DNA of 64,000 bases from NCBI GenBank assembly GCA_018696595.1, contig JABHQW010000005.1, positions 1 to 64,000 on the forward strand, in the 5' to 3' direction. The notes under the pieces were generated by a model. That model did not search any database. It saw only the letters and a list, made by a program, of their open reading frames with translations, and was not told the origin of the DNA. Position numbers and translations under genes: made by a program. This DNA comes from Candidatus Woesearchaeota archaeon. Lineage in GTDB: Archaea; Nanobdellota; Nanobdellia; Woesearchaeales; GW2011-AR9. Below are positions 24,044-45,394 of the stretch, one piece after another; the first letter of the stretch is position 1, and every line of letters starts with the position of its first letter.

Positions 24044-24235
24044 ATGGAAATAATCAAGATTGTATGGAAAGATAATGGAAAAACAAAGATTGCTAAAGGT
24101 AGTCTTATTGAAGAAGATAATTCATTTATCACCGTAGCATCTGAAAGTGGGGATAACATTTCTGTTTCAAAATCATTTATTGTTTCTATAAAGAGATACA
24201 ATAAAATATTTGAGAAAGGTGATTCAAATGCCTGA
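24044..24235 (+). CDS. Small Sm/Hfq-like fold protein
   Basis: Five-strand pattern IKIVWKD / KIAKGSLIEED / SFITV / ISVSKSFI / VSIK. Confidence 0.5.
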   Translation: MEIIKIVWKDNGKTKIAKGSLIEEDNSFITVASESGDNISVSKSFIVSIKRYNKIFEKGDSNA

Positions 24236-27501: not shown

Positions 27502-27502
27502 A

Positions 27503-30500
27503 ATGGAAAATTCAATAAAAATCAAAGAAATGTTTACAAAAGATATTACACGAGATATTAATGGAGTAATTAAAGTAGATCAAAAGGATGAAAATCATGT
27601 TTATACTGAATTAGATGAATATGTAATCACCCAAGAAACTAGAAAATATTTTGATGTGTTCTTTGAGAGATTTATTGAATCAATAGATAGTCCTACTGAT
27701 AAAATTGGAGTATGGGTTTCAGGATTTTTTGGATCTGGTAAGTCTCATTTTATCAAAATGATTTCATATCTTCTTGAAAACAAGGAGATCAAAGGTAAAA
27801 AACCATTAGAGTTCTTTAAAGAAAAAATAAATGATCCTCAGATAACTAGTAATATTGAAAAAGCAGTAGGAAAAGGAACAAAAGATGTTATCTTGTTTAA
27901 CATTGATTCTAAAGCAAACTCAGCAGGTGCAGGTGCAGAACAAATAGTTAATGTGTTTATGAAAGTATTTAATGAAAAAAGAGGTTATCTTGGTGATGTA
28001 TTTTGGATTGCGGAGTTAGAAGAAGATTTAGATTATAAAGGGCTATATGATAAATTTAAAGAAGAGTTCAAAAAAATATCTGGCAACACTTGGGAATCAA
28101 AAAGAGAAGCATATGCATTTGAACAAGATGCAATCATAGAAGCACTTAATAAAATTGATTATCAAAGTAAAGAGTCTTTAGAAAGATTGTTTGAAAGTGA
28201 TGGAAGTTCTTATTCATTAAGTGTAGAAAAATTTGCTAATAAAGTTAAGAAATATTGTGATAAAAAAGGAAAGGATCATCAAGTTTTGTTCTTAGTGGAT
28301 GAAGTTGGACAATATATTGGAGAAAGTAGCGATTTAATGCTTAATTTACAAACAGTAGTAGAAGATTTAGGAACAAGATTACAAGGAAAGTCGTGGGTTA
28401 TAGTAACATCTCAGGCAGACATAGATACAATTACTAAAGAACAAGTAAAAGGAGGAGATTTTTCTAAGATTCAGGGAAGGTTTGGAAAACCTTTGAACTT
28501 ATCAAGTGCTAATGTTGATGAAGTTATAAAGAAAAGGCTTCTTGAAAAAACTCCAGAAATAAAGAAATCATTAGAATCTTATTATGGGGAGAAAGAAACT
28601 ATTCTTAAAAATTTAATCTCTTTTACACAAGGAACTGCTGAAATGAAAAGCTATTCTTCAGCAGAAGGATTTTCTGAAGTATATCCTTTTGTTCCATACC
28701 AATTTAATTTATTGCAGAAAGTATTTGATCAAATAAGAATCACAGGATTTACAGGAAAACACCTTGCAAAAGGTGAGCGTTCTATGTTAAGTGCGTTTAA
28801 AGAATCAACTGAAAACTTAGTTGAGAATTCAATGGGTATATTAGTTCCTTTTTCAGATTTTTACAATTCAATTGAAAGTTTTTTAGATCCAATAATCAAA
28901 AGAACTATTGATCATGCAAAAGCGAATACTAGATTGAATGAGCAAGATATAAAACTATTAGAAACTTTATTCTTAATTAAACATATTAAAGAAATTAAAA
29001 GTAATGTAGATAATTTAACTGTTCTTTCAATTAACAATATTGATGAAGATAAACTTCAATTAAAGAAAAGTATTATTGAAAGTTTAGATAAGCTTAAAGC
29101 AGAAACATTAATTCATCAATCTGATGATTGTTATTATTTTTTAACAAATGAAGAACAAGAAATTAATAAAGAAATTAAAAATCAAGATGTTGATAGACAT
29201 TCAGTTAGGGATGATATTTTTAATATTGTTTATGATGATATCTGTCCTCCAAAATATGGGATATACCAATTTAATAAAATTCTTGATGATAGAACCAAAC
29301 CAATTCAAAAAGCAGATCTTACAATAAAATTTGTGACTCCTCAATATGTAGAACCAATTTATAGTGATCAACAAAACATTGGTGGAAGTAAACAATGTAT
29401 CATAGATTCAACAGATACTTTGTTAATTATTTTTCCAGAAAATAGTGAGTTTGTAGAACAAATAAAAGAAAATAGAAAAATTAGCAGTTACTTAGCTCAT
29501 AAGTACTCTAATAGTCAACCAGATGTAATTAAAAAAATACTCGATGAGAAAACTGGAGAAAGAGATAAATTAAAAAGTCTTGCAAAAGAAAATATTAGAT
29601 CTAGATTAGTAGAAGCTGAAGTTTATATAGATAATACTAAAGTAGATCTTGATTTTAAAGATCCTGCAGACTTTATTAAAGAAGGATTAAAGATCCTAGT
29701 AGAAAATGTATATAGGAAAGCAGGACACATAACCCAGGAGTATGAAACAGAAGATGATCTTAGAAGAATTCTTCAAAACAATGATATGGAAAAATGGGGT
29801 ATTGGAAATACAACTAATGCTAATGCAATAAAAGAAGTTTTAGATTATATTAAAGCAAATCATGAACAAAATGTAAAACTTTTATTGGGAGAAATAAAAT
29901 CAAAATATACAAAGAAACCATATGGTTGGAAAGAGATGACTATTGCTGGAATTCTTACTATTCTTTACATAAAAGAAGATATTACAATCAAATATCAACA
30001 AGAAGTAGTTAGTTATGATGTAGATAAAGTAACAAAATATCTGTCAAAAAGAGATTATTCTGATAAAATCCGTATTGGTCTTCGTGAAAAAGCTGGAGAA
30101 CAAGAGATAAATGAAGTTAAAAAATTACTTAGAGAATTATTTGAGAAAACAGATATTCCTTCAACTGAAACTGATTTGTATAATTATACAAAAAAAGAAA
30201 TTGATGAATTACAAGCTTTTTGTAGTAGTACTTTGAATGAATATTCAATAAATTCATATCCTGGAAAAGAAGCAGTTGATAAACTTGAGAAATACTTAGG
30301 TGGTTATAAATTTTTAACTGAACCTAGTTTATTACTAAAACATCTTGCAGAAACAAAAGATGAATTTAAAGAGCTTCTTGAAGAAGTTAATCCTGTTAAG
30401 AATTTCTTTAAAAGTACTCAGATTAAGATATTTTCTGAAGGAAGAGAAAAATTAGAAAGATTCGAAAGAAACAAAGTTTATTTGACTGTAAAAGGTAAAA

Positions 30501-31024
30501 CTAACTTTGATGATTTGAAAAAAATAATTGATCTTCAATCACCATACAAAGAAATTAAAAATATTCCTTTACTAACAAAAGGTATAGAAACTGAATTAAG
30601 TTCTGTTGCAAAGGATAAAAAAACTAATTTGATATCTGCAGTTGATAATTCTGTTAAATTAGTACAAGAAGAATTAAACAAGCACACTAAACTTTCTGAA
30701 GACTTTAAGACAGCTATTTTTACAAGATTAAATGATCTTAAAGGAGTATTGGAAAAATCAGAAGATTGTACTCTAATAGTAAGTCAGAAAACAAGAATTG
30801 ACGAAACAAAAGGAACCCTATTTGAAGAAATAAGTCATGAAGTACAAAGAATTGCAGAAGAAGAAGGGAAGAAAGATACTAGAACAACAAAAAGCATTTC
30901 TGGGGGAGAGTTCTTTGGATATCCTAAAACCATTGAAAATGAAGAAGATATTAAAAAATATCTAAAAGAACTAGAAGAAAAACTTAAAGACCTAATTAAA
31001 AAGCAAAATCTGAGGGTTTACTAA
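27503..31024 (+). CDS. brxC: BrxC P-loop ATPase
   Basis: RDINGVIKVDQ, WVSGFFGSGKSHF, FLVDEVGQYI, VYPFVPYQF. Confidence 0.95.
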   Translation: MENSIKIKEMFTKDITRDINGVIKVDQKDENHVYTELDEYVITQETRKYFDVFFERFIESIDSPTDKIGVWVSGFFGSGKSHFIKMISYLLENKEIKGKKPLEFFKEKINDPQITSNIEKAVGKGTKDVILFNIDSKANSAGAGAEQIVNVFMKVFNEKRGYLGDVFWIAELEEDLDYKGLYDKFKEEFKKISGNTWESKREAYAFEQDAIIEALNKIDYQSKESLERLFESDGSSYSLSVEKFANKVKKYCDKKGKDHQVLFLVDEVGQYIGESSDLMLNLQTVVEDLGTRLQGKSWVIVTSQADIDTITKEQVKGGDFSKIQGRFGKPLNLSSANVDEVIKKRLLEKTPEIKKSLESYYGEKETILKNLISFTQGTAEMKSYSSAEGFSEVYPFVPYQFNLLQKVFDQIRITGFTGKHLAKGERSMLSAFKESTENLVENSMGILVPFSDFYNSIESFLDPIIKRTIDHAKANTRLNEQDIKLLETLFLIKHIKEIKSNVDNLTVLSINNIDEDKLQLKKSIIESLDKLKAETLIHQSDDCYYFLTNEEQEINKEIKNQDVDRHSVRDDIFNIVYDDICPPKYGIYQFNKILDDRTKPIQKADLTIKFVTPQYVEPIYSDQQNIGGSKQCIIDSTDTLLIIFPENSEFVEQIKENRKISSYLAHKYSNSQPDVIKKILDEKTGERDKLKSLAKENIRSRLVEAEVYIDNTKVDLDFKDPADFIKEGLKILVENVYRKAGHITQEYETEDDLRRILQNNDMEKWGIGNTTNANAIKEVLDYIKANHEQNVKLLLGEIKSKYTKKPYGWKEMTIAGILTILYIKEDITIKYQQEVVSYDVDKVTKYLSKRDYSDKIRIGLREKAGEQEINEVKKLLRELFEKTDIPSTETDLYNYTKKEIDELQAFCSSTLNEYSINSYPGKEAVDKLEKYLGGYKFLTEPSLLLKHLAETKDEFKELLEEVNPVKNFFKSTQIKIFSEGREKLERFERNKVYLTVKGKTNFDDLKKIIDLQSPYKEIKNIPLLTKGIETELSSVAKDKKTNLISAVDNSVKLVQEELNKHTKLSEDFKTAIFTRLNDLKGVLEKSEDCTLIVSQKTRIDETKGTLFEEISHEVQRIAEEEGKKDTRTTKSISGGEFFGYPKTIENEEDIKKYLKELEEKLKDLIKKQNLRVY

Positions 31025-34000
31025 TGAATAATAAGAAAACTTCATTATTTGCTGATACTTTAAGAGAGAAATTAAGAGCTGAAGTAATTGCAAAAGCTGG
31101 CAAATTAGGTTTTACATCATCAGGTATAGCTGATGTTAAAGAATATGAAGATTCAATAATTATTAATGGGCAAGTATTTGGAACAGATCTAAAAAAACAA
31201 AGAGCAGAATTTAAAGAAGTTATTCTAAAGAAAGGATATGAAGTTGTTATTGATGAAATTACTTATACTTGGTTTAATAGATTAGTTGCTTTAAAGTTCA
31301 TGAGTGAAAATGGATATGTTCCAATTAAAGTATTTAGTAGTTCTATTGAAGGAAATGCTGAACCAGATCTTCTTACAAACTGCCTTGACATAGATTTTAT
31401 GCAAATAGACAAAAAAAAGTTATTAGAACTTAAAACTGCTGGAGATGACGAAGAACTCTATAAGTTCTTAATATTATCATTATGTAATCATTTGAATACA
31501 ATCATGCCTTTCTTGTTTGAAAAAATAGCTGATTATACAGAACTAATGTTTCCAGAGAAATTATTACGAACAGATTCTATATTAGTGGATATTAATTCAA
31601 TAATTCCAACAGAAGATTGGAAAGAAGTAGAAGTAATTGGATGGTTGTATCAAGATTATATTAACCCAAGAAAAGATGAAGTATTTGCAAAACTAAAGAA
31701 AAATGTTAAGATTTCAAAAGAAAATATTCCTGCTGCAACTCAATTGTTTACTCCTAAATGGATTGTTAAATATCTAGTTGAAAACTCAGTTGGCAGATTA
31801 TGGTTAGAATCAAATCCAAATGCTGATTTGCAAAGTAAATTAAAATATTTTATTGATCAAGAATTTGAAGTTCCTTCTGATAAAGTTGTTTCTCCTGAAG
31901 AAATAACAGTATTAGATCCTGCAATGGGATCAGGACACATGCTCGTATATGCATTTGAAGTTTTATTTAATATTTACAAATCTCAAGGATATACTGAATC
32001 TGAAATTGCACAAACAATAATTAATGAGAACTTGTATGGCCTTGAAATAGATAACAGATCAACACAACTTGCAGGATTTGCAGTAGTAATGAAAGCAAGA
32101 GAATATGATAAGGACTTATTTTCAAAAGAAATTGATCTTAATCTAGTAGCAATACAAGAAACACCATTAGAATGTCCAATAGATGAGAAAAAATATCCAG
32201 AACTTTCACATTTATGGAAGTTTTTTTACGATGCAAAGAACTATGGATCCATCTTGAATGTAGAAGGCTATGATTTCAATAAAATAGATGAAGAATATTT
32301 ATCTTTTATCAAAAGTTATTCCTTAACAGCACACTTTGATAGAGAACTAATTGCAGGAATCATTAAACAAGCAAAGATCATGAGTGCAAAGTATGATGTG
32401 GTTGTTACAAATCCCCCTTATATGGGGACTAAGGGAATGAATATTGATTTAAGAGATTATGCAAAAAAACATTTCCCAAATACTAAATCAGATTTGATGA
32501 CTATTTTTATGGAAAAAGGACTTCTGCTGTGTAATAAACGAGGTTATATGGCCATGATTAATATACCTTCGTGGATGTTTTTATCAAGTTACACATTATT
32601 CAGAAAAGAATTACTTTTAAATAATTATATTTCATCAATTTTGTTAAATGGAAGGGGTGTTTTTGGATCAGATTTTGGATCTGTAACATTTGTTTTTAAA
32701 AAGGAATTAATTAATAAAAACAGTATATTTCGAAAATTATATGATAATCCTGTATCTGTAAGAAATAATGAAGTTATCAAATCAATCTTTTTAAATAAAG
32801 AGGATAAACGATATATTTTAAAACAAGAATCTTTTTTAAAAATACCAGGTAATACTTTTGCATTTTGGATTTCTGAAAAAATATTAGATCATTTTGAGAA
32901 ATGTACCCCCTTAAGAAATGAATCAGTACCGAGGCAAGGTTTAGCTACAGGCGACAATGATTCTTTTTTAAGATTTTGGCAAGAAATATCTCTAAAAACA
33001 ATTTCATTTAATTCAAAAGATATTAATACCTTTCATAATTCTAATAAAATGTATGCTCCATATAGTAAAGGGGGAGAATTTAGAAAATGGTATGGCAATA
33101 ATGAATTATTAATTAAATTTGATAAAAATTCATTTGAAAAATTATCAAATCAAGGAAACAATTTACCTTCAAAACAATATTATTTTAAAGAAGCACTAAC
33201 TTGGTCATTTATAGGTAGAACTGCTCTAGGTGTGAGATATAGAAAAAAAGGATCAGTTTTTGATGTACAAGGTTCTTCAATATTCCCAAAGTCTCAGATG
33301 ATTTTATACATACTTGGATTTATGTGCTCTAGATTAGTTAATGAATTTATTTCTATTTTAAATCCTACTATGAGTTTCCAAGTTGGCAACATCGGAGATT
33401 TACCAATAATCTTTCCATCTGATGACGCAATAAAACAAAAGATTGATCAACTAACTCAAGAGAACATCGACATCTCAAAAGAAGAATGGGATTCTCGAGA
33501 GACTTCTTGGGATTTTAAGGTTAACGAATTAATCAAACATAAAGATGAGTCTAATAAGTTAGATGTTGCTTTTAGAAACTATTGTGAGTATTGGAAAGAG
33601 AAGTTTTTCAAGCTACACAAAAATGAGGAAGAACTAAACCAGTTATTCATAGATATTTATGATCTTAATGATGAGCTTGACAATAAAGTTCCTTTAAATG
33701 AAATTACTATTCTAAAAGAAGAGTCTGAGATTAAAGATGATCAATTAGTTTTCAAAAAAGAAGTTATTGTTAAGCAATTCTTGTCATACATTGTTGGTTG
33801 TATGTTTGGAAGATATAATCCTGAAAAAGAAGGGTTAATACTTGCTAATCAAGGAGAAACAATAAGTGATTTTCCAATACAATCTCAGTTTAAACCAGAT
33901 GATGACAATCTCATCCCAGTAACAGATAAAGATTATTTCCCTGATGATATTGTTGGAAAAGTAAAAGAGTTCCTAAAAACATATTTCGGAGCAAACAATA

Positions 34001-34449
34001 TTACTGAAAATTTAGATTTTATAGCATCAGGACTCAAGGGATCTGGATCATCTGAAGAAAAGATTAGAAGATACTTCCTAAAAGACTTCTTTAATGATCA
34101 TAAAAAGACATACAAGAAAAAACCTATTTACTGGTTGTTTACATCTGGAAAAAATCAAGGTTTTAACACATTAATCTACATGCACAGATACAATAAAGAA
34201 TTATTGGCAAAAATGAGAATGGATTATTTACATGAATTACAAGGTAAGATAGAAGCAAATATTAGCACAATTAGAGATGATGATGCAAGATCACAAAGAG
34301 AAAAAGAAGATTTGTCAAGACAATATGAAGAGATGAAGAAGTATGATGAATTATTGAATCATAAAGCTTCAGAATATATCGAGATTGATCTAGATGATGG
34401 CGTAACAGTTAATCATGCTAAATTCAAAGATCTTGTGGAGAGTATTTAA
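31024..34449 (+). CDS. pglX: BREX-1 adenine methyltransferase PglX (BrxX)
   Basis: YTWFNRLVAL, PAATQLFTPKWIV, DPAMGSGH, NPPY, KKPIYWLF, DLDDGV. Confidence 0.95.
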   Translation: MNNKKTSLFADTLREKLRAEVIAKAGKLGFTSSGIADVKEYEDSIIINGQVFGTDLKKQRAEFKEVILKKGYEVVIDEITYTWFNRLVALKFMSENGYVPIKVFSSSIEGNAEPDLLTNCLDIDFMQIDKKKLLELKTAGDDEELYKFLILSLCNHLNTIMPFLFEKIADYTELMFPEKLLRTDSILVDINSIIPTEDWKEVEVIGWLYQDYINPRKDEVFAKLKKNVKISKENIPAATQLFTPKWIVKYLVENSVGRLWLESNPNADLQSKLKYFIDQEFEVPSDKVVSPEEITVLDPAMGSGHMLVYAFEVLFNIYKSQGYTESEIAQTIINENLYGLEIDNRSTQLAGFAVVMKAREYDKDLFSKEIDLNLVAIQETPLECPIDEKKYPELSHLWKFFYDAKNYGSILNVEGYDFNKIDEEYLSFIKSYSLTAHFDRELIAGIIKQAKIMSAKYDVVVTNPPYMGTKGMNIDLRDYAKKHFPNTKSDLMTIFMEKGLLLCNKRGYMAMINIPSWMFLSSYTLFRKELLLNNYISSILLNGRGVFGSDFGSVTFVFKKELINKNSIFRKLYDNPVSVRNNEVIKSIFLNKEDKRYILKQESFLKIPGNTFAFWISEKILDHFEKCTPLRNESVPRQGLATGDNDSFLRFWQEISLKTISFNSKDINTFHNSNKMYAPYSKGGEFRKWYGNNELLIKFDKNSFEKLSNQGNNLPSKQYYFKEALTWSFIGRTALGVRYRKKGSVFDVQGSSIFPKSQMILYILGFMCSRLVNEFISILNPTMSFQVGNIGDLPIIFPSDDAIKQKIDQLTQENIDISKEEWDSRETSWDFKVNELIKHKDESNKLDVAFRNYCEYWKEKFFKLHKNEEELNQLFIDIYDLNDELDNKVPLNEITILKEESEIKDDQLVFKKEVIVKQFLSYIVGCMFGRYNPEKEGLILANQGETISDFPIQSQFKPDDDNLIPVTDKDYFPDDIVGKVKEFLKTYFGANNITENLDFIASGLKGSGSSEEKIRRYFLKDFFNDHKKTYKKKPIYWLFTSGKNQGFNTLIYMHRYNKELLAKMRMDYLHELQGKIEANISTIRDDDARSQREKEDLSRQYEEMKKYDELLNHKASEYIEIDLDDGVTVNHAKFKDLVESI

Positions 34450-34450
34450 G

Positions 34451-37024
34451 ATGGCAAATGTAGAAAAAACAATAAAAGGATTACTATCTAAATTTAACGC
34501 CAGAGAATCTTATGAAACTAGAAAAATTGTTTTTTGGTATGATACAGATAAAACAGCAAAAGAAGAAGATATCAAAGAAATTCAATCAGAACTAGAAAAA
34601 CAAGATATTAAAATAGTAATCTTAAAAAATAACTTTTTTGAAATAAAAAAGATTATAGAACATGACAATCCAGAATCTAACTTCCTAGTTTATTCTCAAG
34701 AAAACGAAAAGAAATATGAAGAAAATTGGTTATTAGATGTTCAATTATACTCAACAAGGTTTGAAAATAGCCGAGTTGCAGATGTAAAAAGTATTTTTAA
34801 TATAGATGGATCCAAATTGGATAAATTTATTGATGCACATTATAACTTTTTTCAAAGCAAAACAAGAGTTGAGCTATTAATACAACTCTATCATCCCTCA
34901 TGGGATGAAAGTGATTTTGAAAAAGGATTATTAGCAGTTATAACAAGAACAAAAGTTCTTGATACAAATAGTATTGTTAGGAATTTATTAATAAAGTCAT
35001 TAGAAGAACAAGAAAATGAATTTTGGTTGGATATTGAAAAGTATAACATTTCTTCTTCGTTTTGGGATTTAGTAAAAAATACTTATGGATATAAATCAGA
35101 TTATCCAAAGCTATCAAAATTATTTTATAGTTTTATAGTAACACATATTGAATATCATACAAAAACAATCCTTAAAGGATATAATTCATATATTAATGAA
35201 AGAAAAAATGATTGTGAAGTATTTTTAAACAGTTGGATTAGAGATTCTGAAAATCTAAAAGCATATCAAGAATATGCATCTCATTTTGAAGAATCAAATT
35301 TTGATGATTTAAGATCTCAATTTGATAAAAAGACTAATAAGGATATCTGTGAGGCTGAAGCATTGGAATTCTTTGATAAAGCTTTGATCATAAACATTTC
35401 AAATCAGTTGTCTAATAATGGTCAGAATTATTCATCATATAAAGAATTAATAGAACATAGAAAAGGAAAGGTTTGGTATAAAAATTATAAGCCAGTATAT
35501 CAAGCATTAGATAGTGCTATTTCTTTATTTGAATTTATTTCAGGAGAAAAGATTGATCCTAATTCATTATCTAAATTATATTCCTTATACAAAACTAAAT
35601 ATCATAAAGCAGATTATTATTATAGAAAATTCTATGAGCATTTTGATCAATGTAAAAGTGACATACTTAAGAAGAAATTGCGTTCTGAAGTAGAAAAGAT
35701 ATATCATAACAAATTTTTAGATAGATTTATTGAAATTTGGACAAATGCAGTAACTTCTGAAAATAAAAAGGATTGGAGTATTGGATCTAATTCAACACAA
35801 AATGAGTTTTATGATTTGTATGTTAAAAAGTATGCATCTAAAAAAAATAAAGTAGTAATTATAATTTCTGATGCTTTGAGATATGAAGTTGCAAATGAAT
35901 TAAAAAATAAATTAAATGTCCAATTAAGGGGGTCAACAGAGATTAAAGACTTAGTTGGAGTAGTTCCTTCTTGTACTAAAATTGGTATGGCTTCATTATT
36001 ACCTCACAAAACTTTAAACTATAATCAAGGAACAGTATCCTGCGATGGTATTAACACTCAAGGAATCAAAAATAGAGAAAAAATACTACAAAACAAGAAT
36101 AATGATTCAATAGCAATTAATTACAAAGAATTAATTAGACTAACACGACAACAAACAAGAGATTTATTTAGAGGAATGAATGTAGTATACATTTATCATA
36201 ATAAGATTGATGATGTTGGTGATAATGCTAATTCAGAAAATGAAGTATTTAGTGCATGTAAGAATGCAATTGATGAAATAAAAACTTTAATCAATGATTT
36301 AACTAATTCAATTTCATTAGCAAATATAATTGTAACTGCAGATCATGGGTTTATATATAAGAGAGAAACATTAAAAGATGTAGATAAAGTTGAATTGAAC
36401 AGATTTAATAGAACAAATATTGTTGATTCTTCAAAAAGATATGTTGTTACTAATGAAAATATCGATATGGATAATGTTCATAAATTCTCGTTAGATTATG
36501 CAGAAGGAGATCTTTTAGTATATGTACCTAAAGGTAATTTGAGATTTAAAACTCAAGGTGCTGGAGTTAACTTTGTTCATGGAGGAATAACTCCTCAAGA
36601 AATAACAATTCCTGTCTTAGTGTATAAACATACTAGATCTGACAAAGATTTAGATAAAAAGAATGTTAAACATGGATATGTGAATGTAACTTTATTAAAT
36701 ACTTCTAGAAAAATAACCACTAACATAACTCCAATTAACTTGTATCAAACTGAGAAAGTAACTGAAAAATTAAAACCAATTAAATGCAAAATTTCTTTGA
36801 TTGATCCAGATACTAAAGAAAAAGTTAGTGATGAAAAAACATTAATTATTGATAGCGGTTCAGAAAATCCAGATAGAAGAAAATACAATACAAATCTTAC
36901 ACTTAAATCATCTGTTGAAAATAAAAAACATCTATTAAGGATATTAAAAGTTGAAGAGGAAAAAGAAGAATTAATTCAATTTGATATAGATTTAGCTATG
37001 ACAAATGATTTTGATGATTTTTAG
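34451..37024 (+). CDS. pglZ: PglZ (BrxZ) alkaline-phosphatase-family nuclease
   Basis: RKIVFWYD, IISDALRYEV, VPSCTKIGMASLLP, TADHGF, FVHGGITPQE. Confidence 0.95.
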   Translation: MANVEKTIKGLLSKFNARESYETRKIVFWYDTDKTAKEEDIKEIQSELEKQDIKIVILKNNFFEIKKIIEHDNPESNFLVYSQENEKKYEENWLLDVQLYSTRFENSRVADVKSIFNIDGSKLDKFIDAHYNFFQSKTRVELLIQLYHPSWDESDFEKGLLAVITRTKVLDTNSIVRNLLIKSLEEQENEFWLDIEKYNISSSFWDLVKNTYGYKSDYPKLSKLFYSFIVTHIEYHTKTILKGYNSYINERKNDCEVFLNSWIRDSENLKAYQEYASHFEESNFDDLRSQFDKKTNKDICEAEALEFFDKALIINISNQLSNNGQNYSSYKELIEHRKGKVWYKNYKPVYQALDSAISLFEFISGEKIDPNSLSKLYSLYKTKYHKADYYYRKFYEHFDQCKSDILKKKLRSEVEKIYHNKFLDRFIEIWTNAVTSENKKDWSIGSNSTQNEFYDLYVKKYASKKNKVVIIISDALRYEVANELKNKLNVQLRGSTEIKDLVGVVPSCTKIGMASLLPHKTLNYNQGTVSCDGINTQGIKNREKILQNKNNDSIAINYKELIRLTRQQTRDLFRGMNVVYIYHNKIDDVGDNANSENEVFSACKNAIDEIKTLINDLTNSISLANIIVTADHGFIYKRETLKDVDKVELNRFNRTNIVDSSKRYVVTNENIDMDNVHKFSLDYAEGDLLVYVPKGNLRFKTQGAGVNFVHGGITPQEITIPVLVYKHTRSDKDLDKKNVKHGYVNVTLLNTSRKITTNITPINLYQTEKVTEKLKPIKCKISLIDPDTKEKVSDEKTLIIDSGSENPDRRKYNTNLTLKSSVENKKHLLRILKVEEEKEELIQFDIDLAMTNDFDDF

Positions 37025-37036
37025 GAGGGTAAAAAA

Positions 37037-39067
37037 ATGGTCGAACAAGATACTGATATAAAATTAAACGAAGTATTTGCAGGAAAAGTAGTGAGGAAAG
37101 ATTTAACTAAAACTTTAGGTAAAAGTGAAAATGTTCCAATATATGTAATAGAGTATCTTTTAGGGCAATATTGTGCAACTGATGACGATAATATCATAAA
37201 AGAAGGATTACAAAAAGTTAAAAATATTTTAGCAGATAACTTTGTTCGACCAGATGAAGCTGAAAAAGTAAAATCAAATATCAGGGAAAAAGGATACTAT
37301 ACTGTCATTGATAAAGTCACAGTTAAATTAAATGAAAGACGAGATGTTTATGAAGCAGAATTTTCAAATTTGGGATTAAAGGGTGTTGAAGTAGAACCAA
37401 ATGATGTTAAAAGATTTGAAAAACTTCTTTGCGGAGGTATTTGGTGCATTCTTAAAATAAGCTATTCAACTGAAGAATCTAAAAATCCATTTATTATTGA
37501 AAGTTTAAAACCAATTCAAATTGCTAGTATGAAAATTCAGGAGTTTATAGATGCGAGGGAAAAATTCCAGACTGAAGAGTGGATTGATGTTATTTTAAGA
37601 TCTATAGGGATGGAACCAACTCAATTAGAAGAGAAAACTAAATGGCATATCCTGGAAAGACTTGTACCTTTAATAGAGAATAATTATAATTTAGTAGAAC
37701 TTGGCCCAAGAAGTACAGGAAAATCTCATGTTTACAAAGAAATTTCTGCCAATTCTATTTTAATGTCTGGTGGTCAAACTACAGTTGCAAATCTATTCTA
37801 TAATATGTCCACTAGAAAAATAGGTCTTGTGGGTTATTGGGATGTAGTTGCATTTGATGAAGTTGCAGGAATGAACTTTAAAGATAAAGATGGAATTCAA
37901 ATCATGAAAGATTATATGGCATCAGGATCATTTGCAAGAGGAAAAGAGGAAAAGAATGCTAATGCTTCAATAGTATTTGTAGGTAATATTAATCAAAGCG
38001 TTTCATCATTGTTAAAAACTGCACATCTATTTCAACCATTTCCAGAATCTATGAATAATGATAGTGCTTTCTTTGATAGGATTCATTACTATTTACCTGG
38101 ATGGGAAGTTCCAAAATTTAAACCAGAACATTTCACAGATAGATATGGATTTATTGTTGATTATTTTGCAGAATTTCTAAGGGAAATGAGAAAAAGAAAT
38201 TTTAGTGATCAAATTAGTAGCTATTTCAAACTTGGTAATAACCTAAATCAAAGAGATGTAATTGCAGTTACAAAAACATTCTCTGGATTAATGAAATTAT
38301 TGTATCCTAATCAAAAAGCAACTAAAGAAGAAATACAACAAGTTCTTGAATATTCACTTGAAGGGAGAAGAAGAGTGAAAGAACAACTAAAGAGAATGGG
38401 AGGGATGGAATTCTTTGATGTTAATTTTTCATATATAGATAATGAAACTTTAGAAGAACATTTTGTAAGTGTGCCTGAATCAGGAGGAAACAAATTAATT
38501 CCTGAAGGAGTTATGAATCCAGGACATATATTCACAGTAGGATATGCTAATGGTACAAAAATAGGTGTCTATAAACTTGAATTACAAGTAGTTAATGGAA
38601 CAGGAAAATTTGAAAAATCTGGTTTAAACTCTAATGCCAAAGCAAAAGAAGCCGCAAATACTGCAATAAATTATTTTAAAGCAAATGCTAAAAACATTAG
38701 CCAAATGATCAAGTATAAAGAAAAAGATTATTTCTTACACATACAAGATCAGTATGGTGTTGGTCTAACTTCAGACATTGCTCTTGCATACTTCATTAGT
38801 TTATGCTCTGGATCATTAAATAAGCCAGTAGATGAACAATTAGTGGTGTTAGGTACTATGACTATAGGTGGATCTATTAATTCAATAGAGAACCTAGCAG
38901 ATCAATTACAAATATGTTTGGAAGCAGGAGCAAAGAAAATATTATTGCCTATGTCTTCTGCAGGAAAAATGTCTTCAGTACCTCCGGAATTATTTAGTAA
39001 ATTTCAAATTGCATTTTATTCAGACCCAATAGATGCAGTTTACAAAGCATTGGGGTTTAATCATTAG
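37037..39067 (+). CDS. brxL: BrxL (MCM-like AAA+ with Lon-like domain)
   Basis: GKVVRKDL, ELGPRSTGKSH, VAFDEVAG, AFFDRIH, C-terminal Lon-like domain. Confidence 0.95.
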   Translation: MVEQDTDIKLNEVFAGKVVRKDLTKTLGKSENVPIYVIEYLLGQYCATDDDNIIKEGLQKVKNILADNFVRPDEAEKVKSNIREKGYYTVIDKVTVKLNERRDVYEAEFSNLGLKGVEVEPNDVKRFEKLLCGGIWCILKISYSTEESKNPFIIESLKPIQIASMKIQEFIDAREKFQTEEWIDVILRSIGMEPTQLEEKTKWHILERLVPLIENNYNLVELGPRSTGKSHVYKEISANSILMSGGQTTVANLFYNMSTRKIGLVGYWDVVAFDEVAGMNFKDKDGIQIMKDYMASGSFARGKEEKNANASIVFVGNINQSVSSLLKTAHLFQPFPESMNNDSAFFDRIHYYLPGWEVPKFKPEHFTDRYGFIVDYFAEFLREMRKRNFSDQISSYFKLGNNLNQRDVIAVTKTFSGLMKLLYPNQKATKEEIQQVLEYSLEGRRRVKEQLKRMGGMEFFDVNFSYIDNETLEEHFVSVPESGGNKLIPEGVMNPGHIFTVGYANGTKIGVYKLELQVVNGTGKFEKSGLNSNAKAKEAANTAINYFKANAKNISQMIKYKEKDYFLHIQDQYGVGLTSDIALAYFISLCSGSLNKPVDEQLVVLGTMTIGGSINSIENLADQLQICLEAGAKKILLPMSSAGKMSSVPPELFSKFQIAFYSDPIDAVYKALGFNH

Positions 39068-39075
39068 ATGTTAAA

Positions 39076-42000
39076 ATGACAAACGAAATAAAAACTCAAG
39101 TGGATAAAGCATGTGTGATACTTGCAGGTGCAGGAACTGGTAAATCTTACACTATTAAACAAAAAGCCAAATATCTCGTTGAAGAATTAAAGTATAATCC
39201 TGAAGAAATCCTTTGTCTTACTTTTTCAAATGAAGCAACTAATTCACTAAAGAAAGGAATGCAAGAAGAGATTAATTCAACAGAAGATGTTGATGTTAAA
39301 ACATTTCATGCATTTTGTGCAGATATATTAAGAGAAGAAGGTCATTTAGTTGGCGTTCAAGAAGGTTTTGAGATATTGCTTCCTGATGATGCTAAGATTT
39401 TTATGCATAAATATTTAGAAATTAAACCTTATTGGTCAAACAGATACATAAACACAATATCTACTGCAAAAGATTTTGGTATTAGTATAGATGATATTAA
39501 AGGACATTTGAATAAATTAAAAGAGAACTTGTCTGGAGATAATCTTGAAGAACAAACAACTGAAATGAAAGTTGAATTAAAAACTCTTTATCTTGAAGAA
39601 AACACTAAAGAACTTAGGGAGCGAAAAAAAGAAATACAACAATTCTTGAAGGGATTTGATAATTATTCTAGATTAAAAGAATTTATCAAAGCATGGGATG
39701 ATTTTGACAATTTAAAAAAAGAAAAAAATTATCTTGATTTTTCAGATCTTAATTTTTTTACATTAAAATTATTTAGAGAATTTGGTGCAAAAAAAGATAA
39801 ATACAAATATGTATTTATAGACGAATTTCAAGATACAAATAAATTACAATTTGAGTTAATAGAATTCATTGCAGGACAAAATATCACAGTAGTTGGAGAT
39901 CCAAATCAATCAATTTATGGGTTTAGAGGATCGTATAAAGAAAGTTTTGAACATTTTAAGAAAGTTTTCAAAGTAGAAGAAGTTCATAAACTTGATAAAA
40001 GTTGGAGATCACCAAATCAAATTCTTAATGCATCTCATGAATTAATAAAAAATAATTATGAAAATCCTGAAGATTGTATTAACATTCAAAATGCTAATGG
40101 GGATGAAGGCGATAAAGTTAATGTAATTGAACTTGTAAATAAATATGAAGAAGCTAGATATATTGCTGATTTAGTGCAGAAAAAGATAGATGAAGGAATT
40201 TCTAAAGATGAAATTTGTATTCTTCATAGAACTCATAAACAAGCTGAAGAAATAAAAAAAGCATTAGAACTTAAGAACATACAATTTATTTCAGCAGGAA
40301 AAATAGATCTACTTCAAAAAAGAGAGATAAGGACAGTAATAGGATATTTAAGCATATTATCAAATTTAATTAATAGATCTGGTACTGGGGAACAGTCATG
40401 GTGGGATTTATTTCATTTTCAAAATACATTAAGTCCAGAAGACTCAGTTAAAATTGGAAGATATCTTAAAAAACATAACAAACATGAAATGCCTATAGAA
40501 GATCAAATAGGGATCGATGAATTATTATTAAATTCTATCTCAGAGTTGAACCTATCGAATGAAGCAAAAGTAATTATAAAAAGAGTAGTTGATCTGTTAA
40601 GAGAAATACTTAAATCTTCAAACAAGCCATTACCAGAGATAATCCTTGATATATTTGAAATTTCTGGATTGAATAGGGCTTTTAGTCATCAAAGAAATAT
40701 TCAGAACATTGAAAGTTTAATGAATTTAAAAAAATTCTATGAAATTGCGAAGAATTATTATAATTTACATGAAAAAAATCTAACTGAATTTATTAAGTAT
40801 CTAGAAATGGTTGACACTTTAGGAGTTAGTATAGATGCATCAAAAATATTACACATTGATGCTGTTAGATTAATGACGATTCATGCGTCAAAAGGATTGG
40901 AATTTGATGTAATTATAACTTGTAATCTTGCAAAAGATAGATTCCCTGTTGGTAGGACAAGGAATGAACCATTAATTCCTAAAGAATTGTTACCAGATTT
41001 CAAGGCACAAATAGATGATTGGAAAGAAGAAGGTCTTAATGAAAAGGAAATTGAAAAGAAAATAAAAGATTATGATAAGTCTATTCAATTATTTGAAGAA
41101 AGAAGACTTTGTTATGTAGCTTGGACTAGGGCTAAGAAGGAATTACATTTAACTTATGCAAGAAGTTATAATGATGAACCAGATTCAACGACAAAATCAA
41201 TTTTTTTAGACGAAATAAAATATACTGAAACTTGTGAATTTGTAAAAGATGATGAAGAAAAATCATTATTGATTGCACCAAATTCTAATTATGAAATTTA
41301 CAAATCTATGTTAAAAAATCAATTAATGAACTCTTTAGATACTGAAGGCGTAGATGATTTGAAGAAAAGATTAATCACTTATTTGGTTTGTAGGGATAAA
41401 AAATTAATTGAGGATGATTCATCAGATAAAGCTGAATTACAAAGGCATTTAGATAAATGTAATGAAGATGTATCTGGAATTAAATTTAATTCTTCAGATT
41501 TTACATTTAGTCCAACAGCATTAATTGAATATTCGGAATGTCCAAAAAAGTTTGAACTTAGCAAGATATATCAAATGCCTCAAAGAGGAGATTTTGAATC
41601 AGACGGTGGAGGGGCATCACTTGGATCTTTTATTCATAAAGTCTTAGAATTAGGAGTAGATCAAAAAACAGACAAATTGGAAGGATATATTGAATTAGCA
41701 AAGAAATTAGTTAAAGATAATGAATGGGAATCAATAAATATTAATGATGCAATTCCTTTAATTGAAATATTCTGGGAGAGAAATAAAAATAAAATAAATG
41801 AAAACTCCAAAACTGAATTAAAACTGCCTGTAGAAATCGAAGGTTTTAGATTTTTTGGCCTTGCAGATAGAGTAGATACATTGGATGATGGAACAGTTGA
41901 AATTGTGGATTATAAAACAAATAAAGATGCGATACCTCCTAAAAAAAGGGCATTGCAATTAGGTTTTTACGCATTAGCTCTTCAATCAAAAGGATTCAAA

Positions 42001-42252
42001 GTTTCAAAATTAACATTAGATATGTTAAAACTTGATAAACCAATTGAAATGAAAATTGAAGGTGATGAAGTTATTGCAGTATTGGGTTGTAATAAATCAG
42101 CCAATTTCAAATTATCAGAATTAAAAGCAGAAATAGTTGAATTAACAAAAAGTATAAAGAACGATTATGAACATTCGTTTGATTGTACTGATGATGAAAA
42201 TTCATGTAGATTTTGTGGGTATAAATTTTATTGCCCTAAGTGGGATGAATAA
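39076..42252 (+). CDS. UvrD/PcrA (SF1A) helicase fused to a PD-(D/E)xK nuclease with an Fe-S Cys staple
   Basis: AGAGTGKS, IDEFQD, VGDPNQSIYGFRG, MTIHASKGLEF, EERRLCYVAWTRA; GLADRVD..IVDYKT; ECPKKF plus CRFCGYKFYCP. Confidence 0.9.
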   Translation: MTNEIKTQVDKACVILAGAGTGKSYTIKQKAKYLVEELKYNPEEILCLTFSNEATNSLKKGMQEEINSTEDVDVKTFHAFCADILREEGHLVGVQEGFEILLPDDAKIFMHKYLEIKPYWSNRYINTISTAKDFGISIDDIKGHLNKLKENLSGDNLEEQTTEMKVELKTLYLEENTKELRERKKEIQQFLKGFDNYSRLKEFIKAWDDFDNLKKEKNYLDFSDLNFFTLKLFREFGAKKDKYKYVFIDEFQDTNKLQFELIEFIAGQNITVVGDPNQSIYGFRGSYKESFEHFKKVFKVEEVHKLDKSWRSPNQILNASHELIKNNYENPEDCINIQNANGDEGDKVNVIELVNKYEEARYIADLVQKKIDEGISKDEICILHRTHKQAEEIKKALELKNIQFISAGKIDLLQKREIRTVIGYLSILSNLINRSGTGEQSWWDLFHFQNTLSPEDSVKIGRYLKKHNKHEMPIEDQIGIDELLLNSISELNLSNEAKVIIKRVVDLLREILKSSNKPLPEIILDIFEISGLNRAFSHQRNIQNIESLMNLKKFYEIAKNYYNLHEKNLTEFIKYLEMVDTLGVSIDASKILHIDAVRLMTIHASKGLEFDVIITCNLAKDRFPVGRTRNEPLIPKELLPDFKAQIDDWKEEGLNEKEIEKKIKDYDKSIQLFEERRLCYVAWTRAKKELHLTYARSYNDEPDSTTKSIFLDEIKYTETCEFVKDDEEKSLLIAPNSNYEIYKSMLKNQLMNSLDTEGVDDLKKRLITYLVCRDKKLIEDDSSDKAELQRHLDKCNEDVSGIKFNSSDFTFSPTALIEYSECPKKFELSKIYQMPQRGDFESDGGGASLGSFIHKVLELGVDQKTDKLEGYIELAKKLVKDNEWESININDAIPLIEIFWERNKNKINENSKTELKLPVEIEGFRFFGLADRVDTLDDGTVEIVDYKTNKDAIPPKKRALQLGFYALALQSKGFKVSKLTLDMLKLDKPIEMKIEGDEVIAVLGCNKSANFKLSELKAEIVELTKSIKNDYEHSFDCTDDENSCRFCGYKFYCPKWDE

Positions 42253-42280
42253 AATTATTAATAATTAAGAGGTGTTTATT

Positions 42281-42514
42281 ATGGATAAAAAAGAGGAAAT
42301 TCGTAAAAAAACTTTAGAAGAATTGGAATCTATGAAGGATAATGTAGATAATGCAATTAAGAATATTAAAAATTTCGAAGGAGTTGATTTTGGATATGAA
42401 GTTATGCAAAATGGTGCGTTTATAACAAATATAAAAAATATTATGGATCTATTAAAAGATGATAGATCATTTAATGGTGATTTTTGGGTAATAAAGAATG
42501 AAAAAATAGATTGA
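42281..42514 (+). CDS. Small hypothetical protein
   Basis: ATG after RBS GAGGTG. Confidence 0.55.
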   Translation: MDKKEEIRKKTLEELESMKDNVDNAIKNIKNFEGVDFGYEVMQNGAFITNIKNIMDLLKDDRSFNGDFWVIKNEKID

Positions 42515-42520: not shown

Positions 42521-43294
42521 TTAGTTATACAAAACAATAATCTCAAATTCTTCTTTATCATGATTAATCGCTTGCCAAAGAATATTACATTCTGAATTTA
42601 ATTTCTCAGTACAGATCTCTGCAATTTTATTTATTTCATCCAGAGAAGTATTTTGTGGAACTTTCATAGCAATAAGGTAGTTTGATATGCCTTCATCCTT
42701 TTTTATCAGTTCGTTTAGTTCAGAGGGTTGTTTGAACGAAAAATACGACATCTCACAAGCTTTGTCTAAGACTGATTTATGAACATCAATGAAATCAAGT
42801 CCACAAAGTCCTATTCCAAACATTACTTTTTTCCATTCTCTAAAATTAGGATTTTTTGATAATTCTTCATTATTTTGAATTTTCAAATTAGGTAAATAAT
42901 ATCTATTAACAATGTCTCCTCTTTGAATGATTGTTTGAGCAATTGCGTTAAATTGGTTCTCGTATGATTCAGTTATTTGTGGTATTGGTAATTGATAAGG
43001 TTCTTCATTTTTCGCACCAAACCAACATCCTTCAATTGTTGAAACAAATTTATCATCTTGCTTCGCAATCTTTAACAAAATTAATCCATCAGAAAAAGTT
43101 ATGCTATCATCTTCCCAAGATTCAACATCAAGTTCGTGAGGTATTTCAAATTCTTTATCATTTTGTATATCATTAAGAATCTTAAATACAACTTCTTTGT
43201 TTTCTGGTTTTTCTTCTAATAGTATATGGGCAGTATTAACTACTTCTTCTTTCAAATCTTGATATTTCATTAGTGGATCTGTATATTCTGTCAT
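42521..43294 (-). CDS. Protein with a C-terminal FtsZ C-terminal-domain-like module and no GTPase domain
   Basis: GLCGLDFIDV (T7-loop-like) ... TSLDEINKIAEICTEKLNSECNILWQAINHDKEEFEIIVL; no GGGTG(S/T)G tubulin signature. Confidence 0.65.
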   Translation of the reverse strand: MTEYTDPLMKYQDLKEEVVNTAHILLEEKPENKEVVFKILNDIQNDKEFEIPHELDVESWEDDSITFSDGLILLKIAKQDDKFVSTIEGCWFGAKNEEPYQLPIPQITESYENQFNAIAQTIIQRGDIVNRYYLPNLKIQNNEELSKNPNFREWKKVMFGIGLCGLDFIDVHKSVLDKACEMSYFSFKQPSELNELIKKDEGISNYLIAMKVPQNTSLDEINKIAEICTEKLNSECNILWQAINHDKEEFEIIVLYN

Positions 43295-43424
43295 TTTTTA
43301 TGCCTCAAAACTGTCAAAAACTGTTCCCTTTTCTATGTTTGATATATGGTTTTACCAAAGCAAAAGGGAAAACTAATCATAACTATATGAAAAGTTTAAC
43401 TACTAATAAAAGCTTTTGTTTTTT

Positions 43425-43769
43425 TCAGACTTTTATCACGATGGGGCTTTTTGGAATTTCATCCAGATTGATTATTTGCCAACCTCTACGCTTCCAATGT
43501 ATGACTAATCTTGATTTTACTGGAGGATTTGCTTTAGCTGTATCAATTAATTTCTGAAGTTGCTCTTTCATCTTTGTATCAACAGTCAGTTTTTCTTGTG
43601 AAGTGCTTTTCACTTCATCCAGATAGACTTGACCATCTTCAACAGAGATTACATCACAAACACCGAACTGTCCACAGCCACTTCCAGCAATCCTTTGTGC
43701 AAAACCAGAGCAATTCACAATCTTAACATATTTTCTTTCAGAGTCCTTGATATGTTTTTGTGAAATCAT
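43425..43769 (-). CDS. Hjc-like Holliday junction resolvase (PD-(D/E)xK)
   Basis: ERKYV..RIAGSG..CDVISVEDGQVYLDEVKS; ATGA overlap with the integrase stop. Confidence 0.8.
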   Translation of the reverse strand: MISQKHIKDSERKYVKIVNCSGFAQRIAGSGCGQFGVCDVISVEDGQVYLDEVKSTSQEKLTVDTKMKEQLQKLIDTAKANPPVKSRLVIHWKRRGWQIINLDEIPKSPIVIKV

Positions 43770-45061
43770 TTTTGCACCTCTACAGATTCTTGAGCTTCTT
43801 GAATCAATTTTGTGTTTTCACTAATGTCTCGATTCATTATTTTCATCAATTGCTCTTTTATTGCTGGATTTTGCAACAATTCCATAAGTGCTGGTTCGTA
43901 TCTTTCAAAGCCACTAACTTTTTTCTTGTAGTTGCCTACTTTGTCTGTAAGCATTTTGTTTTCAATTATTAGTTGATCGTTGATTAATCTTTCATCCATT
44001 GATTCAGATTGAAGTATTGCTCTTTCCGAAGAAAATATTTCGTTCATAACTTCAGAATTTTTTACTCCAGCTCTTTTGTAGTAGATGTCTGGTACTCGAC
44101 TTGCAAGATTCCAACCAAATCTGTAGCAAAAGTTTTGGTATGTCTTGATTCTTGTTGCGTAATAGGTGGCACTTGATGCCCTGATTCTGTGTGGAGTTAC
44201 ACTTTTACCTAAAACTTTCATTCCTTTTTGATAAAGTTTGGTTCGTATTGCATCATAGCTGTAATTAAACAAGTATGCTTCTTTGTTGTTTGGGTCTGTA
44301 TGATGTTTTTCAATATACTTTAACAAGTAAATGCTTGACAAGTATAATCCTATGGTTCTTCCATTGCCACTTTTTGCAATTGAGTTTGTTATGTTTATTG
44401 AAACATATCTTGCTTGTGCATTTGGATAAACTATATCTTTAATTTTTAGGTTAAGAATCTCGTTTATCCTTGCTCCAGAATCAAACATTAACATTACTAA
44501 AGTTTTCATCTTGAATTTGGTGAATGAATCTTTCATCAATTGGAGTTCATCTATTGAGTAGATTTGTCCTTCTGGTCTTGGTTCGTAAGTATCCATCCAT
44601 ACTACTTCTTTTGGATAAAATTCATTTTTGCCTTTTAGCCATTTCCAAAATTTTCTTATGACTTTCTTGATGGTTGCTTTAGTTGTTTCTGCATATTCTT
44701 TTCCAGTTAATGGTGATACAAGGATTCCATCTTCCAACTTTTCAACAAAATCTCTCATATCTTGTTCGTTTATTTCTCTGAACTCTTTTCCTTGCATCCA
44801 TCCATCAAAATTTCTTAAAATGCCCATTACTCTTAATGCTCGGCTTTTACCTATTGACCTTTTTTCTTGCTTTTTAGAGGGGTCACCAGTTCGCATATCT
44901 CTTAAATAATGCAAAATGTCACTTTTGTTCACACTTTTACTATCTTCAAAGAATTTAGTTTTGGCTTTATCGTACACAGATTCGTGGTCTTGTATCCATC
45001 TTCGCCCATTTTTGCCTATTCTATCTACTACTGTTTCTACAATTTGTACTTTAGTTTCCAT
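43766..45061 (-). CDS. Tyrosine recombinase/integrase
   Basis: DSGARINE (R), KSG (K), TPHRIR (HxxR), RFGW, PDIY (Y); RBS GGAGGA. Confidence 0.92.
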   Translation of the reverse strand: METKVQIVETVVDRIGKNGRRWIQDHESVYDKAKTKFFEDSKSVNKSDILHYLRDMRTGDPSKKQEKRSIGKSRALRVMGILRNFDGWMQGKEFREINEQDMRDFVEKLEDGILVSPLTGKEYAETTKATIKKVIRKFWKWLKGKNEFYPKEVVWMDTYEPRPEGQIYSIDELQLMKDSFTKFKMKTLVMLMFDSGARINEILNLKIKDIVYPNAQARYVSINITNSIAKSGNGRTIGLYLSSIYLLKYIEKHHTDPNNKEAYLFNYSYDAIRTKLYQKGMKVLGKSVTPHRIRASSATYYATRIKTYQNFCYRFGWNLASRVPDIYYKRAGVKNSEVMNEIFSSERAILQSESMDERLINDQLIIENKMLTDKVGNYKKKVSGFERYEPALMELLQNPAIKEQLMKIMNRDISENTKLIQEAQESVEVQK

Positions 45062-45343: not shown

Positions 45344-45394
45344 GTAAGACTATCTTTGTCTAAGTTCTTTATAAAATTTTTGGATAATCTTTCC

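Follow-up and report, generated by a model that had tools for sequence, protein, structure and literature searches.

The window analysed here is a stretch of 64,000 nucleotides (positions 1 to 64,000 of contig JABHQW010000005.1) from a Candidatus Woesearchaeota archaeon of the small-genome (DPANN) type, whose DNA is found in marine metagenomes; the source assembly comprises 1.19 Mb in 8 contigs and is 97% complete. On its minus strand the window carries a gene for a protein of 257 amino acids (aa), in which an N-terminal domain is fused to a homologue of the C-terminal domain of FtsZ. The gene and its parts are:

42521..43294, minus strand: gene for the 257-aa two-domain protein, an intact ATG-to-stop open reading frame (ORF)
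42887..43294, minus strand: N-terminal domain, residues 1-136, an independent family without GTPase motifs
42524..42886, minus strand: homologue of the FtsZ C-terminal domain, residues 137-257, running from the end of H7 through the T7 loop, H8, S7, H9, S8, H10 and S9 to S10 (sequence profiles, AlphaFold2, Foldseek and VIA)
42782..42811, minus strand: T7-like loop G162-L-C-G165-L-D167-F-I-D170-V171, aligned by hhalign with S214-L-V-N217-L-D219-Y-A-D222-V223 of host FtsZ1

The host carries two canonical ftsZ genes, encoding FtsZ1 (354 aa) and FtsZ2 (390 aa), and a single gene for SepF, which lies within the window at 17201-17410. FtsZ1, FtsZ2 and SepF are the division machinery of the host, and the preliminary description of this DNA, which had taken the presence of SepF as a sign of FtsZ-based division, was right in this respect. 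A search of the genome with PF00091, the tubulin GTPase domain, matched FtsZ1 and FtsZ2 only and thus gave no third tubulin-type GTPase domain. The 257-aa protein had no match to PF00091 even at E 10, and its residues 1-136 gave no PDB or tubulin signal either, in agreement with the earlier statement that the N-terminal ~150 residues are unrelated to FtsZ and lack the GTPase motif.

The relation of the C-terminal half to FtsZ is already visible in pairwise comparisons. With BLASTP, residues 162-242 aligned with residues 250-341 of host FtsZ2 (E 7e-6), which places GLCGLDFIDV opposite GLVNLDFADV, and residues 201-255 aligned with residues 264-318 of host FtsZ1 (E 1e-7); the alignments that had first been drawn by eye were thereby reproduced. 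Pfam FtsZ_C (PF12327) matched below its threshold, with 13.7 bits (E 0.081) when the whole protein was searched and 15.2 bits when only the domain was, against a gathering cut-off of 27 bits, and it matched 10 of the 24 members of the C-module family, the best of them with E 4.6e-12. The alignment of these 24 sequences is the basis of the family profile and of all column counts given below. The profile matched the FtsZ of M. jannaschii with E 8.7e-9 (profile positions 30-133 against FtsZ 222-334), and hhalign aligned the family with the family alignment of host FtsZ1 at 97.4% probability (E 1e-11); the values were 96.5% and E 7.9e-10 after removal of P0034, the most FtsZ-like member. When the whole 1.19-Mb genome was searched in six frames with the profile, the only matches besides the 257-aa gene itself (E 8.5e-52) were the two ftsZ genes (E 2.7e-11 and 2.6e-10). 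The similarity had been assigned to residues ~160-257. The relation to the FtsZ C-terminal domain is confirmed, but by hhalign and VIA it begins earlier, at residues ~146-153, which takes in the end of H7.

Structure prediction points in the same direction. When the 24-sequence alignment was supplied, AlphaFold2 (AF2) modelled residues 135-257 with a predicted local distance difference test (pLDDT) of 94.2 and a predicted template modelling score (pTM) of 0.87, and the model runs helix, helix, loop, H, E, H, E, H, E, E, which is the order of elements in the end of H7 and the FtsZ C-terminal domain that follows it. The best 50 Foldseek matches in the PDB were all FtsZ, with E 4e-8 to 9e-7 and template modelling (TM) scores by query of 0.60-0.75, and in the ESM Atlas a TM of 0.80 to FtsZ clusters was obtained; the structural similarity on which the preliminary description depended was thus found by Foldseek. 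VIA, a search independent of Foldseek, ranked the FtsZ 7yop_A first (Z 13.7, root-mean-square deviation 2.3 A, 112 residues), followed by another FtsZ (Z 8.9), CetZ (Z 8.8 and 7.1) and TubZ (Z 7.7), with unrelated sandwiches (PurM-like, RusA, Rid, chorismate mutase) scoring Z <=5.5. Because the profile, hhalign, AF2, Foldseek and VIA results concur, the homology of residues ~137-257 to the FtsZ C-terminal domain is secure. The family is a remote branch of FtsZ_C that is established by profile and structure and not by the curated Pfam cut-off.

A gene for a Holliday-junction resolvase of the Hjc type adjoins the 257-aa gene, which suggested a RusA-like Holliday-junction resolvase as another candidate for the C-terminal half. 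This was rejected as the main reading, since the FtsZ matches are far stronger (VIA Z 13.7 against 4.9 for E. coli RusA) and are backed by sequence. RusA-like matches in BFVD reached a TM of ~0.4 only, and there was no sequence signal for RusA.

How much of FtsZ is kept in this half? Compared with archaeal FtsZ (M. jannaschii FtsZ1, 1FSZ and 1W58; host FtsZ1 and FtsZ2), the fold is the same and the elements follow in the same order from the end of H7 to S10. The loop L-x-x-L-D-x-x-D-V with both of its acidic residues and core positions around H10 and S9 (W-x-A) are common to both. In the hhalign register, D167 corresponds to D219 and D170 to D222 of host FtsZ1, and the position of the T7 asparagine is occupied by G165; the identification of GLCGLDFIDV as a T7 loop that has kept both aspartates and exchanged Asn for Gly therefore holds. 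The two aspartates belong to the conserved family motif G-L-x-G-L-D-F-x-D-V. Among the 24 members the best-kept columns are N141 and D170 (23 each), P213 and Q241 (22 each), D167 and F151 (21 each), W154 (20) and G165 (19). Unlike FtsZ, the 257-aa protein has no GTPase domain and neither a linker nor the SepF-binding C-terminal peptide: it stops 2 residues past S10, whereas host FtsZ1 runs ~30 residues further. It also differs from FtsZ by a short deletion between S7 and H9, by Q instead of G in the W-G-A motif, by an extra conserved N-terminal helix (N141, F151, W154), by the unrelated 136-aa domain fused to it, and by being mobile and rare.

A phmmer search of 1.84 billion representatives yielded 31 relatives of the 257-aa protein. 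Three of these are further full-length proteins, ~20 are stand-alone proteins of 130-170 aa that match residues ~137-257 only, and ~8 match the N-terminal domain only. The 257-aa protein is a fusion of two modules, each of which also exists separately. The full-length homologues share 41-81% identity and are intact ORFs in several independent metagenomes, and identical copies of the gene were present on contigs of several marine runs from different years. The gene is under purifying selection: the ratio of nonsynonymous to synonymous substitution rates (dN/dS), determined for each domain against three homologues (81, 73 and 61% identity), was 0.17-0.37.

The family is rare. Among 401 genomes that sample the phylum, 3 held the C-domain family with E 1e-14 or better, none of 41 from the same family did, and the named relatives of the 257-aa gene are from Nanoarchaeota (DPANN) metagenome-assembled genomes (MAGs) only. 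A pattern scan of the GTDB genome collection matched the family in one Nanoarchaeota MAG; the corresponding scan of IMG/VR found it absent from viral contigs, and scans of both collections for the stand-alone C-domain subgroup gave no match. Larger C-domain fusions of 372-2000 aa were not found, which is weak evidence, and a profile search at near lengths gave no new members. PADLOC and PHROGs had no match for the 257-aa protein or for either domain. The copy in a Nanoarchaeota MAG (L014) has a single in-frame TAA at 2115-2117, the site of Glu109, and gene callers report it as ORFs of 148 and 139 aa. It is not a natural two-gene split, since there is one frame that is interrupted by the single nonsense codon.

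Other FtsZ_C-only groups, in lineages and architectures different from the present one, share the theme of FtsZ derivatives that have a T7-like loop but no working nucleotide pocket. The ESM Atlas has an archaeal cluster of 59 members of ~190 aa, all with PF12327, one of which is named as Thermoplasmatota, and in BFVD an uncharacterised Siphoviridae protein of 245 aa (A0A8S5LVA2) shares the FtsZ_C fold (Foldseek E 2.6e-6). The theme of FtsZ_C-only proteins may therefore be broader than the present family.

The N-terminal domain is a family of its own, for which no signal was found in Pfam, PDB, PHROGs or the ESM Atlas. It occurs alone in other proteins, the ~8 N-domain relatives matching residues ~8-133 only. 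Two relatives have it fused to Cys-rich (zinc-ribbon-like) segments, and in a DPANN MAG (L009) paralogues are duplicated at 8001-8408 and 9433-9855 in a provirus-like run of small unannotated genes near an HFX_2341-type regulator. An AF2 model of the whole protein made from 5 sequences was poor (pLDDT 57); with this model VIA retrieved generic IF3-C or SepF-like sandwiches and helical hairpins only, and nothing on the N-domain.

The gene lies at the right edge of a block of low G+C content (0.26-0.29 over ~24-44 kb, compared with 0.30-0.34 in the flanks). Its surroundings are:

24210..25190, plus strand: AAA_25 (RepA/DnaB-like) ATPase with a linker-histone-like winged-helix tail (PF13481, E 4.8e-25; PHROG primase/helicase families)
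26150..42252, plus strand: island cargo, type 1 BREX followed by UvrD-PD-(D/E)XK (PADLOC; G+C 0.26-0.29)
42272..42514, plus strand: ORF of 80 aa, convergent with the 257-aa gene (67% identical to L006 11175-11405; no family match)
43295..43424, minus strand: spacer of 130 nt 5' of the 257-aa gene, with GAGG 8 nt ahead of the ATG and A/T-rich TATA-like stretches, as read from the sequence
43425..43769, minus strand: Hjc-type Holliday-junction resolvase (PF01870, E 6.6e-11; 87-89% identical beside the homologues in L004 and L006)
43766..45061, minus strand: tyrosine integrase (PF00589, E 1.3e-9; 71-72% identical copies in L004 and L006)

The genes for integrase and Hjc overlap by 4 nt, are co-oriented and lie just upstream of the 257-aa gene. 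Hjc is an unusual partner for an integrase; it is translationally coupled to it and is the best-conserved gene of the backbone. The 130-nt spacer may contain a promoter and ribosome-binding site belonging to the 257-aa gene alone; in a look-up of RNA data sets, none was listed as holding the gene or its neighbourhood. At the other side, near the left end of the low-G+C island, the AAA_25 ATPase is probably the replication helicase of the element. The BREX system is complete (brxA, brxB, brxC, pglX, pglZ and brxL at 26150-39067, PADLOC). The 1058-aa UvrD-type helicase fused to a PD-(D/E)XK nuclease (39076-42252, plus strand), which begins 8 nt past brxL, is a seventh gene in a type 1 BREX operon that is otherwise canonical; the different cargo of the related element in L014 includes, at 10952-12556, a protein of similar make-up (UvrD_C plus PDDEXK_1). 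Within the UvrD-like gene (41068-41165, plus strand) Rfam gave a sub-threshold match to RF03531, the C. difficile 'sRNA included into helicase gene' (41.9 bits, gathering 65.2), which most likely reflects conserved helicase coding sequence and not an RNA.

The same backbone was found in L004, L006 and L014. In L004 and L006, together with the integrase and Hjc genes, the FtsZ-like gene (61-73% identical) and small convergent ORFs are present. The cargo differs: L004, L005 and L006 carry type I restriction-modification (RM), YgjP and SbcCD-like genes, and L014 has a different integrase and, as cargo, a DUF2779 protein, a helicase, a methylase and the UvrD-PD-(D/E)XK protein. The settings of the stand-alone C-domain genes are varied: a marine defence island (L059) that also encodes GmrSD, a Cas4-like nuclease, MazG, an SLFN-type helicase and an RM system; an element encoding a D5-like primase-helicase; a position adjoining a Csa3/HFX_2341-type regulator; and the vicinity of genes for a small DNA ligase, for PCNA and for an Mrr-like nuclease. 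In L059 (8001-9870) the stand-alone gene, which codes for 138 aa and was seen on 11 contigs, is separated by 1 nt from a following gene for 483 aa that is recorded as DUF8426; a Pfam search gave no match for the 483-aa product. No neighbouring gene is common to all contexts of the relatives. The location of the 257-aa gene on a mobile element, as first proposed, is borne out by the integrase, Hjc, the AAA_25 helicase, the deviant G+C content, the variable cargo and the sporadic distribution, and among the homologues the full-length ones lie on an integrase-Hjc backbone with swapped cargo and the stand-alone ones in other mobile or defence contexts. Mobile elements, usually with defence genes as cargo, carry the 257-aa gene as a rare accessory.

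A search for att sites gave neither a repeat nor a tRNA that would mark the left border of the island: there is no exact repeat of >=12 nt between 45001-45450 and 22501-26200, ARAGORN called no tRNA in the window, and Rfam gave only a weak match at 46633-46692. At 45211-45343 (minus strand), ~150 nt past the integrase start (45061), complementary tRNA-acceptor-like ends can be seen by eye, which neither ARAGORN nor Rfam called. As to an excised form, contigs of four marine runs hold identical or related fragments, among which neither a joint skipping the island nor a circular junction was present. In one marine contig the match to the window ends at 42506 and unlike sequence follows; this break lies where the convergent ORF meets the 3' end of the FtsZ-like gene and may, on the strength of this single contig, be a recombination point between cargo and backbone.

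In FtsZ and tubulin, GTP hydrolysis requires that the T7 loop of one subunit is inserted into the pocket of the next. Oliva, Cordell and Lowe are said to have reported in 2004 that the isolated N- and C-terminal domains of FtsZ fold independently and that the C-terminal domain gives the catalytic T7 residues in trans. We know of no natural use of the activating half of FtsZ or tubulin alone. Our tentative reading, to which we give somewhat less than an even chance, is that the 257-aa protein disturbs division by using its T7 face to dock on host FtsZ1/FtsZ2 at their nucleotide face. The T7 face of the C-domain would bind the exposed nucleotide (top) face of FtsZ1 and/or FtsZ2 by mimicking the next subunit of the filament. 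Having no top face and no membrane-tethering tail of its own, the protein would leave the bound FtsZ face blocked. In current models, as cited in PMC11938149, subunits join the C-terminal (plus) end of the filament via their own N-terminal face. FtsZ monomers would thus be kept off the growing end, that is, sequestered, and the minus ends of filaments could be capped; D167 and D170 may, in addition, trigger GTP hydrolysis in the bound FtsZ subunit. The net effect would be a division ring that is disturbed or arrested for as long as the element is active, similar to what bacterial prophages achieve with their division inhibitors.

A contact with the nucleotide pocket is suggested by the fact that D167 and D170 are among the most constrained columns of the family. 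The missing common neighbour would fit a universal host target, and, because only FtsZ1 and FtsZ2 carry tubulin-type GTPase domains, there is no orphan GTPase half in the host that the C-domain could complete; no other protein of this cell offers a nucleotide face to match it. A narrower version, in which the protein is a 'rogue' GTPase-activating protein (GAP) whose free activating half puts its T7 loop into the GTP pocket of host FtsZ and sequesters or caps from the nucleotide face, we regard as rather doubtful; if it is true, archaea would have their first FtsZ antagonist encoded by an element, and the tubulin superfamily its first natural GAP domain that acts in trans. Severing of filaments, which the preliminary description had considered next to capping, is unlikely. 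A free bottom-face domain would dock only on an exposed nucleotide face, so the targets would be monomers or the minus end of the filament and the outcome sequestration or minus-end capping. The general idea of the preliminary description, a block of division, is plausible; its suggestions that the block might serve abortive defence, or might hit a cell that is parasitised, are speculative.

Docking was also addressed by complex prediction, as the preliminary description had proposed. The prediction of the core of host FtsZ1 (with GTP and Mg) together with the C-domain gave weak support: it scored 0.43, compared with 0.00 for the best of 3 controls, on a calibration that is rough owing to custom alignments and a riding ligand. 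The runs agreed in at least 76% of the contacts, and the pLDDT of the partner was at least 83. Of 80 solved complexes 58 reached the mark used, as did 2 of 110 mismatched pairs; at scores of 0.60 or under, however, only 7 of the 80 solved complexes reached it, along with both of the mismatches that passed. The prediction may be taken to raise the odds of docking slightly.

Several points weigh against the docking model. The identity of the C-domain to the C-domains of host FtsZ is only ~21-32%, the position of the T7 asparagine (N217 in host FtsZ1) is Gly in 19 and Asn in 1 of the 24 members, and ~9-11 residues between S7 and H9 are missing relative to FtsZ. With these residues deleted, the docking interface may have drifted from that of FtsZ. 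The pass in the complex prediction may reflect a memory of the solved FtsZ filaments. Neither the conserved helix with N141, F151 and W154 nor the whole N-domain is accounted for by docking. A binder of the N-terminal (top) face that does not sequester subunits could lead to nucleation or stabilisation of filaments (PMC11938149). Moreover, SulA, MciZ, MinC and MipZ, the negative regulators characterised so far, all take the C-terminal (bottom, plus-end) face of FtsZ (PMC11938149).

The best-surviving alternative, which we consider unlikely, is that the FtsZ fold has been exapted for a role unrelated to FtsZ in the life cycle of the element, as a regulator or as a recombination or replication accessory acting with the integrase, Hjc or the replication helicase. 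Such a role would suit the position of the gene just downstream of, and co-oriented with, integrase and Hjc, the occurrence of the N-domain alone in provirus-like gene runs, and the large sequence divergence from FtsZ; alpha/beta sandwiches are common, and a weak structural likeness to RusA, IF3-C and Rid-type folds was indeed seen. However, the best-conserved part of the family is the T7 motif of FtsZ and not a new site, the FtsZ matches are far above those of the RusA type (Z 13.7 vs 4.9), and the stand-alone C-domain genes occur without integrase or Hjc, among unrelated neighbours.

The defence genes in the surroundings raise the question of a decoy or guard. The free C-domain would then display the face that antagonists target, and it would soak up a viral division inhibitor, which would protect host FtsZ, or sense it on behalf of the island's defence. 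In most of the informative contexts the gene adjoins genes for defence (BREX, type I RM, GmrSD, SLFN-type helicase, other RM genes), and the C-terminal face of FtsZ is the target of SulA, MciZ, MinC and MipZ alike (PMC11938149). A precedent for sensing is the defence protein CapRel, which senses the phage inhibitor Gp0.4 bound to FtsZ (PMC13423816). Against this, a good decoy should keep the surface of its target, whereas the identity to host FtsZ is only ~21-32%; no recognisable effector domain is attached and no partner gene is shared; the gene stays with the integrase-Hjc backbone while the defence cargo is swapped; and the strong conservation of the catalytic aspartate pair fits a contact with the nucleotide pocket better. 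We therefore consider a decoy or guard quite improbable.

That the protein binds the top face, as in our docking model, but acts as a nucleator or minus-end stabiliser, making filaments stable, non-treadmilling or ectopically nucleated, rests on the same homology and T7 conservation as docking with inhibition and follows a published argument that nucleation or stabilisation is to be expected when the N-terminal (minus-end) face is bound (PMC11938149). A monomer with an occupied top face cannot join the growing end, however, and at high dose sequestration is expected; we give this variant a slim chance. Finally, a decayed ftsZ fragment or an annotation artefact without function, which the sub-threshold Pfam score of the 257-aa protein and the in-frame TAA of the L014 relative might suggest and which the preliminary description had named as a possible refutation, is effectively refuted by conservation, with dN/dS of 0.17-0.37, intact ORFs at 41-81% identity in several independent metagenomes, a diverse family with its own conserved motifs, a confident AF2 model and identical copies in several marine samples, and we attach next to no probability to it.

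If the docking model is correct, the protein would resemble known division inhibitors in what it does and differ from them in what it is. SulA, MciZ, the N-terminal domain of MinC (MinC-N) and MipZ are small proteins that act on a longitudinal polymerisation face of FtsZ by sequestration or capping (PMC11938149). They have no relation to the 257-aa protein in sequence or fold and take the bottom face of FtsZ, whereas the FtsZ C-domain described here is predicted to sit on the opposite, nucleotide face. Genes for inhibitors of FtsZ are common in prophages; examples of such inhibitors are Kil of lambda (PMC3961180), KilR of Rac (PMC12482147) and Gp0.4 of T7 (PMC13423816), and in archaea that divide by ESCRT (Sulfolobales) the viral and cellular ribbon-helix-helix regulator aCcr1 stalls division (PMC9976892). 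Like the 257-aa gene, the genes for Kil, KilR, DicB of Qin, Gp0.4 and aCcr1 are accessory genes of integrated or viral elements; unlike it, they encode unrelated short peptides or transcription factors that are not derived from FtsZ. An FtsZ-derived negative regulator of FtsZ assembly is ARC3 of plant chloroplasts, which has lost GTPase function. ARC3 differs in having a whole degenerate FtsZ-like region together with MORN repeats and in being a spatial regulator of the host, not a mobile protein with the C-domain only. To our knowledge, no natural inhibitors of archaeal FtsZ1 and FtsZ2 are known, and a published element-encoded inhibitor for FtsZ-dividing archaea was not found in the literature consulted.

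A description of a stand-alone family of FtsZ C-terminal domains was not found in the literature consulted either, and the family is a new derivative of the FtsZ/tubulin superfamily at the level of architecture. Should the docking model hold, a cytomotive filament would be controlled here in a new manner, by mimicry of the polymer's own interface, and the protein would be a ready-made probe for the kinetic polarity and the dynamics of archaeal FtsZ1 and FtsZ2. It would also mean that integrative elements of archaea interfere with the division of their host, like bacterial prophages do. Even without the predicted function, the family tells us that the halves of FtsZ can evolve apart, which bears on models for the origin of the tubulin fold by fusion of two domains.

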